Shown one piece after another: positions 24,021 through 25,162 of a DNA stretch of 64,000 bases. The DNA lies in assembly GCA_919902105.1 (NCBI GenBank), contig CAKKQO010000023.1:2128-66127 (forward strand). The letters run 5' to 3'. Position 1 is the first letter of the stretch, and each line of letters begins with the position of its first letter. Below the pieces are notes generated by a model, which saw only the letters and a program-made list of their open reading frames with translations, searched no databases and was not told the DNA's origin. The DNA comes from Omnitrophica bacterium GWA2_41_15 (GTDB lineage: Bacteria > Omnitrophota > Gorgyraeia > Ghiorseimicrobiales > Ghiorseimicrobiaceae). The translations under genes were made by a program, and so were the position numbers.

Positions 24021-25162
24021 TCCATCAAGATAAAAATACTGGTGCGCGCTTAGGCCGTTTAGAGACGAGCCACGGTGCTATCGAGACTCCTATTTTTATG
24101 CCGGTAGGCACTCAGGCAACCGTTAAGGCGCTTACTAGCCGCGATTTAGAAGAGGCTGGCGCACAGATTATTCTTGGCAATGCTTATCATTTGTATCTGA
24201 GGCCGGGTTTAGAGGTAATTAAAAATGCCGGCGGCCTGCATAAGTTTATGCATTGGCAGAAACCGATTTTAACTGATTCAGGCGGATACCAGGTATTTAG
24301 TTTAGCGCGTTTAAGAAAATTAAGCGATAGAGGTGTGGAGTTTCAGTCGCATATAGACGGATCCCGGCATATGCTTACGCCTGAAAGCGTGGTTGATATC
24401 CAGCTTATTTTAGGTTCGGATATCTTAATGCCGCTGGATGAGTGTGTGCATTATCCCTGTATAAAAGATGAGGCGGAGATAGCGGTGAAACGCACTATCG
24501 CGTGGGCGCGCCGCTCTAAATTAGTCCATAGTCAACAGTCCATAGTCAATAGTAAAAATAATAAAAACTATGGACTATCGACTATCGGCCACGGACTTCT
24601 TTTCGGCATCGTCCAAGGGGCGACATATTTGGATTTGCGTAAATATTGCGCAGAAGAATTGGTAAAGATAGGCTTTGACGGTTACTCTATAGGGGGAATT
24701 TCTGTTGGCGAGCCGCAGGATTTGATGTATAATCTTATACAAGCAACATGTGAATACCTGCCTAAAGATTTTCCCCGTTATTTGATGGGTGTAGGGACTC
24801 CAGAAGATATTGTCTCGGCTGTAGATTATGGCGTGGATATGTTTGATTGCGTTGTGCCCACAAGGTACGGCAGGAACGGCACTGTCTTTACATCAAGCGG
24901 AAAAATTGTGGTGCGTAATTCGCCCTATATTAGCGACTTGCGGCCGTTGGATGAAGAATGTAATTGCTATGTTTGCAAAAATCATTCACGCTCTTATATC
25001 CGGCACCTTTTAAATACAGATGAAATATTAGGGGCAATATTAGTTTCCTATCATAATATTTATTTTTACCTGCGGCTGATGGAAAAGATAAGAGAGGCAA
25101 TTAAAGAAGACAGATTTATGGAGTTTAAGAGGGAGTTTTTGAATAAAATAATATGCGCATAG
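23990..25162 (+). CDS. tgt: Queuine tRNA-ribosyltransferase (carries a repeat-encoded insertion)
   Basis: [42 protein letters not shown], zinc site CxC..C..H ([17 protein letters not shown]). Confidence 0.95.
24523..24588 (+). repeat. Intragenic 66-nt tandem plus inverted repeat inside tgt
   Basis: AGTCCATAGTCAAC and AGTCCATAGTCAAT in tandem, an A-rich loop AAAAATAATAAAAA, then CTATGGACTATCGACTATCGG (ATAGTC/GACTAT pairing). 22 codons, in frame. Confidence 0.85.

Follow-up and report, generated by a model that had tools for sequence, protein, structure and literature searches.

How does a DNA repeat whose unit is 7 nt long persist in frame inside the gene of an essential enzyme? The question is raised by tgt, the tRNA-guanine transglycosylase gene of Omnitrophica bacterium GWA2_41_15, which was analysed within a 64,000-nt stretch of assembly GCA_919902105.1 (contig CAKKQO010000023.1, positions 2,128-66,127, forward strand; hereafter the window, in which all coordinates are counted from the first letter). 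The gene contains two inverted arrays of heptamers separated by an A-rich loop. Arrays of 7-nt, sometimes 8-nt, units form a class that is widespread in one Omnitrophota clade, where they are found in permissive surface loops of housekeeping genes, and this element is a member of it; the class usually takes the form of an inverted array pair folding into an imperfect hairpin. The reading favoured here, with a probability of about 0.6, is that the tgt element is a translated and tolerated heptamer-repeat hairpin that is kept up by slippage in steps of three units, homogenisation of the units and selection for the reading frame.

The heptamer hairpin within tgt

The initial annotation of this DNA had described two tandem 14-mers, an A-rich spacer and an inverted arm, together forming a hairpin with an A-rich loop, and this architecture was confirmed by the sequence, in which the inverted arm begins at 24567, and by folding (z score about -5.5; parts listed in Table 1). 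The two 14-mers are AGTCCATAGTCAAC at 24523-24536 and, directly after it, AGTCCATAGTCAAT at 24537-24550. Their tandem arrangement stands, but the 14-nt period does not: Tandem Repeats Finder (TRF) returned a period of 7, and the longer period is only apparent because C and A alternate in the heptamer unit. The consensus units are TAGTCMA in the left arm and ACTATSG, in three to four inverted copies, in the right arm, and at least three copies lie head to tail in both (4.6 and 3.0 by TRF). Together with the preceding T (24521), the left arm encodes L178-S188. The predicted RNA hairpin had free energies of -23.1 and -22.8 kcal/mol with z scores of -5.2 and -5.7, and none of 200 shuffled sequences folded as well. 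A length of exactly 66 nt, or 22 codons, had to be given up, as the hairpin spans about 24522-24591 and its weak outer pairing runs on to 24597. With up to two mismatches allowed, the 14-mer occurred three times in the window against 0.32 expected, a number reached in none of 100 shuffles; all three occurrences lie inside the element, and the 14-mer was not found elsewhere in the 64 kb.

The host gene is apparently intact. Residues 16-384 of its product align to Zymomonas mobilis TGT (E = 2.4e-124), and its twin in the database is named 'MAG: tRNA guanosine(34) transglycosylase Tgt [Candidatus Omnitrophota bacterium]'. The motifs LTDSGG, LDEC, GIVQG, DMFDCV and CxCxxC..H are conserved with the Z. 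mobilis enzyme and invariant in a 38-sequence alignment. The repeat block lies in frame within tgt and leaves the flanking conserved motifs untouched, as first proposed. The Asp residues of LTDSGG, LDEC and DMFDCV, the Gln of GIVQG and the zinc site CxCxxC...H are taken here to have the catalytic, substrate-binding and metal-binding roles established for Z. mobilis TGT. The core of the initial annotation, a tandem and inverted repeat at the nucleotide level inserted in frame, is supported.

The insert lies between RSK and LLFGIVQG, after the long helix that follows the LDEC strand. In the AlphaFold2 (AF2) model of Tgt, with a predicted local distance difference test score (pLDDT) of 86.7 and a predicted template modelling score of 0.89, residues 178-190 form a low-confidence extension of helix 159-190 (pLDDT about 68), followed by a poorly defined loop at 191-202 (about 52, and below 50 at 194-196) that leads into strand 203-208 (LLFGIV). 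The active site of a (beta/alpha)8 barrel is formed by the C-terminal ends of its strands. Since the insert occupies an alpha-to-beta loop, it would lie on the barrel face opposite the catalytic one, a placement that follows from topology rather than from a measured distance. At this site Tgt exceeds the Z. mobilis enzyme by 12 residues and the shortest Omnitrophota homologs by 17-21 (loops of 8 and 4 aa against 25 here); the 375-aa Tgt of PDB entry 10fb aligns over 15 fewer residues in total, a figure for the whole alignment and not for the insert site. The initial annotation had put the excess over E. coli Tgt at about 15 residues.

It is highly improbable that selection maintains the insert for the sake of its peptide, which might extend a helix or act as a flexible lid modulating Tgt dimerisation or partner binding, with the DNA repeat as a by-product. 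About 15 homologs share the peptide LVHSQQSIV(N/H)S, and in the AF2 model helix H159-190 continues into the insert as far as its midpoint, yet confidence is low over residues 181-200 (pLDDT 52-68) and the same phenomenon is found in unrelated proteins. Conservation of the extra residues across the phylum independently of the nucleotide repeat, which had been named as evidence against a nucleotide-level origin, was not seen in the ortholog alignment. Many Tgt homologs lack these residues altogether (loops of 4-9 aa), others carry different heptamer-derived peptides at the site, and where the left-arm peptide recurs, the nucleotide repeat recurs with it, conserved beyond the synonymous sites of the gene. 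Were the peptide the sole target of selection, identity at all 11 third positions would be left unexplained.

How the arrays change among relatives

DNA was compared for ten related Tgt genes (L104 and L106-L114). The TAGTCCA-type element is present at the Tgt site of L104, L112, L113 and L114, and in L109 and L110 it is joined in frame by nested GC-rich palindromes (CCTGCCTGTCCGGCAGGCAGG in L109; three palindromes, giving a 46-aa loop, in L110). The A-rich loop is retained in all sequenced relatives with this element type. Other units stand at the same site in L107 (GTCACAA x4.5 and an inverted arm), L111 (GTCACAG x4) and L108 (GGTTCTC x4 / GAACACC x4, with 5-bp helices split by 2x2 mismatches and a free energy of about -29 to -30 kcal/mol), and the closest relative with compared DNA, L106 (79% identical overall, about 82% outside the insert), has an unrelated insert without a hairpin. 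The TAGTCCA-type element was absent from all 23 loci that a Tgt-protein scan of genome contigs yielded as controls. Metagenome-contig loci, retrieved with two very general patterns from alignment A1, served as controls only, as they come, among the matches listed, mostly from other phyla. An assembly artefact was rejected on the grounds that the element type recurs in independent metagenome-assembled genomes from different samples; an intein, an intron and translational bypass were likewise rejected, every copy being in frame and stop-free.

The TrmD loop after PIFRAVE carries tandem 7- or 8-nt repeats in seven of eight clade genomes, with units that differ between genomes, and the eighth (L110) holds mainly GC-rich palindromes together with a short 8-nt array. 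Strong TrmD hairpins occur in three genomes (L106, -35.6; L109, -42.5; L111, -20.6 kcal/mol), and in four of the eight the array is direct only. Seven of the ten Tgt inserts fold with z <= -3.9. Because the Tgt hairpin is not significant in L112 (z -0.8), L111 (-1.5) and L106 (-0.2), whose genes are intact, and because the TrmD loop is direct-only in four genomes, the tgt hairpin is not indispensable.

Three processes shape the arrays. First, array length changes by slipped-strand events that survive only in steps of three heptamers, that is 21 nt or 7 aa. In a survey of 114 Tgt homologs the loop lengths peak at 8 (13 proteins), 15 (17) and 22 (10) aa, with counts modulo 7 of 17, 40, 23, 2, 19, 8 and 5, which are descriptive only as the homologs are mutually related; in the LVHSQ family, to which the present element belongs, the lengths are 11, 18 and 25 aa. 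The right arms of L114 and L104 differ by 21 nt. Insert length is constant in nine of ten clusters at >=90% identity; in the remaining cluster, P0136 and P0103 are 7 aa apart. Phase variation was rejected, since no frameshifted allele turned up, every homolog being in frame, and length is stable in nine of the ten clusters.

Second, the units within an arm are homogenised by concerted evolution. L107 and L111 differ at the same base in every unit, and the right arms of the TAGTCCA family are uniform in each lineage, reading ACTATGG, ACTACGG or ACTGTGG throughout. Third, selection for the reading frame removes in-frame stops. A 7-nt unit cycles through the three frames, so the TAG of TAGTCCA comes into frame in every third unit. 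In the window's tgt element the one unit that would bring TAG into frame has CAG instead, at 24536-24538; this codon is also CAG in L104, L110, L112, L113 and L114, and TTG in L109. The right arm in the window uses TCGACTA/TGGACTA instead of the TGA-containing TTGACTA, and in some arrays right-arm variants keep out TGA or TAA and accept a mismatch in return.

The heptamer unit, the clade-wide class and the finding that the site is a hypervariable repeat locus of long standing, and not a single insertion, all go beyond the initial annotation. Inside essential enzymes (Tgt, TrmD, PrmC and IspG) repeats can persist over long evolutionary times even though their unit is not divisible by three, and they leave readable signatures, namely length classes 7 aa apart, peptides with a 7-aa period and stop-patching point changes at in-frame units.

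Upkeep of the element

In the favoured account of a tolerated repeat, the arms would stay largely complementary through intrastrand templating or through selection for pairing, and the element would have no role in Tgt catalysis, being tolerated or selfish repeat DNA and not an adaptation. Several points weigh against it. The left arm is identical at 33 of 33 nt between the window and L104, and at 23-32 of 33 in the other pairs of seven genomes, whereas elsewhere in tgt those genomes agree at only 40-52% of third codon positions and the codons right beside the element differ at synonymous sites. For the whole element the window and L104 are 83% identical, against 66% for the rest of the gene. 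For a neutral repeat, the left arm and the A-rich loop have changed far too little, which points to constraint at the nucleotide level or to mobility of the element. The nearest Tgt relatives, P0002-P0004 (76-79% identity), lack this element type, while relatives at 64-70% have it. Moreover, gain of a single 7-nt unit shifts the frame of an essential open reading frame (ORF), so simple slippage does not explain how the arrays arose. Finally, the insert is presumed to be translated, as a 25-residue loop, on the strength of the open frame. One possible explanation for the left-arm conservation lies in the arrays themselves: with homogenisation, a given base of the unit would pass through all three codon positions from one unit to the next, leaving no base truly synonymous.

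The same conservation above synonymous sites is what favours a conserved cis-acting nucleic-acid element, with the protein insert merely its cost. Candidates would be a site for RNase III or other processing, a signal that pauses or attenuates translation within the queA-tgt-trmD-rplS operon, or the target of a protein recognising a helix with 7-nt periodicity. The arms remain complementary although their units differ between lineages, L113 shows one A-U to G-C double change, the 5-bp helices separated by 2x2 mismatches recur in L108 tgt and L106 trmD, and a majority of the Tgt inserts fold well (above). However, compensatory change was found in only three of 20 aligned pairs, too few to prove selection for pairing, and in some arrays pairing is sacrificed to avoid stop codons. 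The losses of the hairpin in L106, L111 and L112 with retention of the gene, and the direct-only TrmD loops, tell in the same direction. The unit sequence also differs at every site in the window, which makes a single sequence-specific reader unlikely, and no Rfam family, intron or tRNA models included, matched anywhere in the window at gathering thresholds. A cis-acting function is considered unlikely.

Mobility would account for the patchy distribution of a near-identical sequence. A small palindromic element resembling miniature inverted-repeat transposable elements (MITE), repetitive extragenic palindromic (REP) sequences or Rickettsia palindromic elements (RPE), or else a laterally exchanged cassette, might favour this tgt loop. 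The element type is scattered over a rough, not bootstrapped, neighbour-joining tree in which the window's nearest relatives are without it, the high identity is limited to the element and does not reach the flanks, and the nested palindrome CCTGCCTGCCGGCAGGCAGG recurs at non-orthologous sites like a dispersed element. On the other hand, beyond the confinement of the 14-mer to the element within the window, the left-arm 14-mer CATAGTCAAYAGTC was found among all fetched loci only at the tgt site of L104/L105, and a scan of viral contigs yielded no sequence identical to a left-arm 21-mer. Inspection by eye revealed neither a target-site duplication nor terminal inverted repeats outside the arms, the element ends being repeats themselves. 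Each array in the window has its own unit, and the length classes and unit-wide substitutions fit evolution in place. Mobility is regarded as rather doubtful.

A further and rather unlikely proposal is that this clade has a dedicated process, for which DNA repair, a polymerase or a mobile hairpin system would be candidates, that writes or maintains hairpins of 7- and 8-nt period at fixed loops of essential genes, and that the hairpins themselves may be conserved functional elements, acting in processing, in pausing or as a protein-binding 'code'. If true, it would explain both the conservation of the left arm and A-rich loop above synonymous sites and the co-variation of the arms between lineages. 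A constraint at the nucleotide level, if real, would point to an unknown function of RNA or DNA, or to a mechanism of repeat maintenance, in a poorly studied phylum.

Arrays and palindromes beyond tgt

The other arrays of the window (Table 1) are counterparts of the tgt element at further places, one of them intergenic. All intragenic arrays are in frame and stop-free, and every coding array compared with solved homologs coincides with an excess of residues (Tgt, 12; PrmC, 7 and 9; TrmD, 5; IspG, about 16-19 aa). The ispG array lies inside the insert relative to Aquifex aeolicus IspG (3noy), between two aligned blocks. The loop of the prmC hairpin is formed by the palindrome CCTGCCTTGCCGGTAGGCAGG. 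The spoIID array encodes an N-terminal hydrophobic segment, and the in-frame TAA of its unit is replaced by CGA. L106 has a hairpin at the same 5' position of spoIID with a different unit (CAGTCGC / CTTGCTA), and the flanking arms are unrelated heptamers.

Table 1. Positions of the tgt element, its host gene and the other short-unit arrays of the window
Feature	Position	Strand	Evidence or measure
tgt (tRNA-guanine transglycosylase), 390 aa, apparently intact	23990-25162	+	ORF, PF01702, Z. mobilis TGT alignment
tgt left arm, TAGTCCA TAGTCAA CAGTCCA TAGTCAA TAGT	24522-24553	+	TRF TAGTCAA, period 7, 4.6 copies
tgt stop patch, CAG codon (Q183)	24536-24538	+	(24536-23990) divisible by 3
tgt A-rich loop AAAAATAATAAAA, encodes KNNKN	24554-24566	+	13 nt
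tgt right arm, ACTATGG ACTATCG ACTATCG GCCA	24567-24591	+	TRF ACTATCG x3.0 at 24567-24587; inverted repeats I1-I5
ispG (gcpE) direct 8-nt array CAGTTGGC x4, encodes SLASWPVGQLASI	11436-11473	+	insert vs Aquifex IspG
Intergenic AGTTACG-type direct heptamer array upstream of queH	20202-20229	+	TRF
spoIID 5' end hairpin: ATAAGTT-type arm, T-rich loop, ACTTATC x4	21134-21215	+	z -5.0
trmD direct array AGAACTA x4.3	25375-25404	+	5-aa excess over solved TrmD structures
prmC second insert: palindrome CCGCCTGTGGCGG, then ATCAAGT x3 (array 43390-43415)	43373-43415	+	9-aa excess vs T. maritima HemK
prmC hairpin TCGAAAT x2 / CGAATTT x2, just before NPPY	43586-43648	+	free energy -32.4 kcal/mol, z -7.1

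In a scan of periods 4-12 the window held five tracts of period 7, where shuffles gave 0.25; period 8 was also raised and the other periods were not. Per 100 kb, period-7 tracts numbered 20.5 in clade loci (23 in 112 kb, a density somewhat inflated as five of the seven loci had been selected for a Tgt insert), 4.7 in other Omnitrophota and 1.7 in other phyla. A strict heptamer-pair detector missed the window's own elements, and a relaxed detector was used instead. Across the 64 kb examined the array units are all different (TAGTCCA, ATAAGTT, AGAACTA, ATCAAGT, TCGAAAT and AGTTACG), and in L110 one unit, GAGCACAA, recurs twice.

Repeat DNA of this kind is known; what is unusual is its in-frame position in orthologous loops of essential genes, a unit of its own at each site, the hairpin pairing and the occurrence in Omnitrophota. 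No earlier description of such Omnitrophota repeats was found in full-text literature searching. RPE, reportedly described by Ogata and colleagues in 2000, are said to be palindromic DNA that lies in frame in housekeeping genes and is translated into surface regions without disturbing the fold. The tgt element resembles them as an in-frame palindromic insertion in a conserved protein-coding gene, but RPE form dispersed families of 100-150 bp with a conserved sequence and many copies, whereas the tgt element comprises about 70 nt of 7-nt units and its sequence is unique in the window. Phase-variable contingency loci built on simple sequence repeats (SSR) share with it a tandem unit inside an ORF that is not a multiple of three; unlike them, it shows only 21-nt steps and no frameshifted alleles, and its hosts are housekeeping genes and not surface antigens.

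Closer in architecture is the P6b element of the Nostoc tRNA-Leu(UAA) group I intron, a degenerate heptanucleotide hairpin according to the passage of PMC3488679 that cites Costa et al. 2002. As far as that passage describes it, P6b shares with the tgt element the paired heptamer halves of the hairpin, a copy number that varies between lineages, nested sequences other than heptamers and different repeat classes at one locus. P6b belongs to a non-coding cyanobacterial intron, whereas the tgt element lies in the coding sequence of an essential enzyme in Omnitrophota, and, being translated there, it must also change length in 21-nt steps and keep clear of stop codons. Heptamer arrays, among them the cyanobacterial short tandemly repeated repetitive (STRR) sequences and TAACTGA repeats, are plentiful in both cyanobacteria and Beggiatoaceae, and occasionally they are translated into LSVISYQ repeats (PMC4679880); a survey, as that paper cites it, found heptanucleotides to be the commonest class of long SSR, and polymerase slippage was proposed. 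Geobacter metallireducens has 49 elements of four tandem heptanucleotides, both intragenic and intergenic (PMC2700814). The present arrays are like these in their 7-nt tandem units, few copies per array, many arrays and, in some, an intragenic position with 7-aa periodic peptides. In the STRR and Geobacter cases one or a few units dominate the genome, mostly as intergenic direct arrays, whereas each array of the window has its own unit, and most of the arrays sit in orthologous loops of conserved genes, commonly with an inverted partner array. The Omnitrophota arrays may accordingly be viewed as the counterpart in this phylum of the in-frame palindromic elements of Rickettsia and the heptamer hairpins of cyanobacteria. 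They mark permissive loops in these enzymes and offer fast-evolving markers for lineage typing, and annotators and users of structure prediction should be aware that such inserts derive from DNA repeats.

REP and REPIN sequences are short extragenic hairpin repeats with one sequence per family, which depend on the REP-associated tyrosine transposase (RAYT) (PMC3116915). The heptamer hairpin differs from them in being intragenic and in sharing its sequence with no other copy; no transposase was found among the ten window ORFs scanned against Pfam, and no search aimed at RAYT was made. The nested 20-bp palindrome CCTGCCTGCCGGCAGGCAGG is REP-like, being conserved, dispersed and confined to the clade. 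As a family of perfect palindromes (CCTGCCTGCC/GGCAGGCAGG) it occurs at five sites of the window against 0.03 expected (1624-1636, 11729-11748, 19059-19078, 20350-20369 and 43606-43626), and in relatives at L104 5923 and 6974, L107 712, L109 1377 and 2012, and L110 10635, giving 11 copies in 187 kb of clade DNA against none in 865 kb of other loci. It is found past the ispG stop, within ruvB, where the queH ORF begins and in the prmC hairpin loop, and the copy at 20350-20369 adjoins the intergenic heptamer array upstream of queH. In at least ten of the 114 Tgt homologs the palindrome lies in the hypervariable Tgt loop, read as 'LPAGRQ'-like peptides. The family looks like a REP-like dispersed element specific to this clade.

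Several smaller observations concern the arrays and their surroundings. The T-rich loops of the spoIID hairpins encode the hydrophobic core of the N-terminal signal or anchor, LIIFLFL in the window (21104-21215) and LFIFLFF in L106 (6528-6620); the position of the L106 spoIID ATG reads ATA in the window, so the start codon of the window gene is uncertain. The ATCAAGT unit of prmC also forms an intergenic array in L110 (16011-16034). Intergenic heptamer arms flanking a terminator-like GC hairpin and a T run were seen at L047 1686-1784 (AGGTTAC / CCTGTAA) and L073 3359-3451 (CAGCTNT / AGCTGAA); as both are metagenome contigs outside the clade, with Tgt about 52% identical, composite heptamer hairpins also occur in other bacteria. 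Elsewhere in the window, a 588-aa ORF at 874-2640 without a Pfam match at E <= 1e-5 holds the CCTGCC..GGCAGG palindrome at 1624-1636. The 3' tail of the rnhB ORF carries two tandem copies of the small hairpin TCCGCCAAAGGCGGA at 26814-26843, and the RNase_HII domain ends at residue 200 of 241; judging from the sequence of the tail, this ORF seems to run through terminator-like palindromes. Almost all long ORFs across 1-64000 lie on the plus strand, and minus-strand ORFs of at least 100 aa nearly all overlap plus-strand genes, so that the strand bias of the genes is very strong. Two long, imperfect intergenic hairpins are not built of heptamers, one at 23561-23644 with 37-nt arms (30 of 37 paired) directly after the queA stop, and one at 10537-10587 with 23-nt arms (19 of 23 paired) just upstream of ispG.

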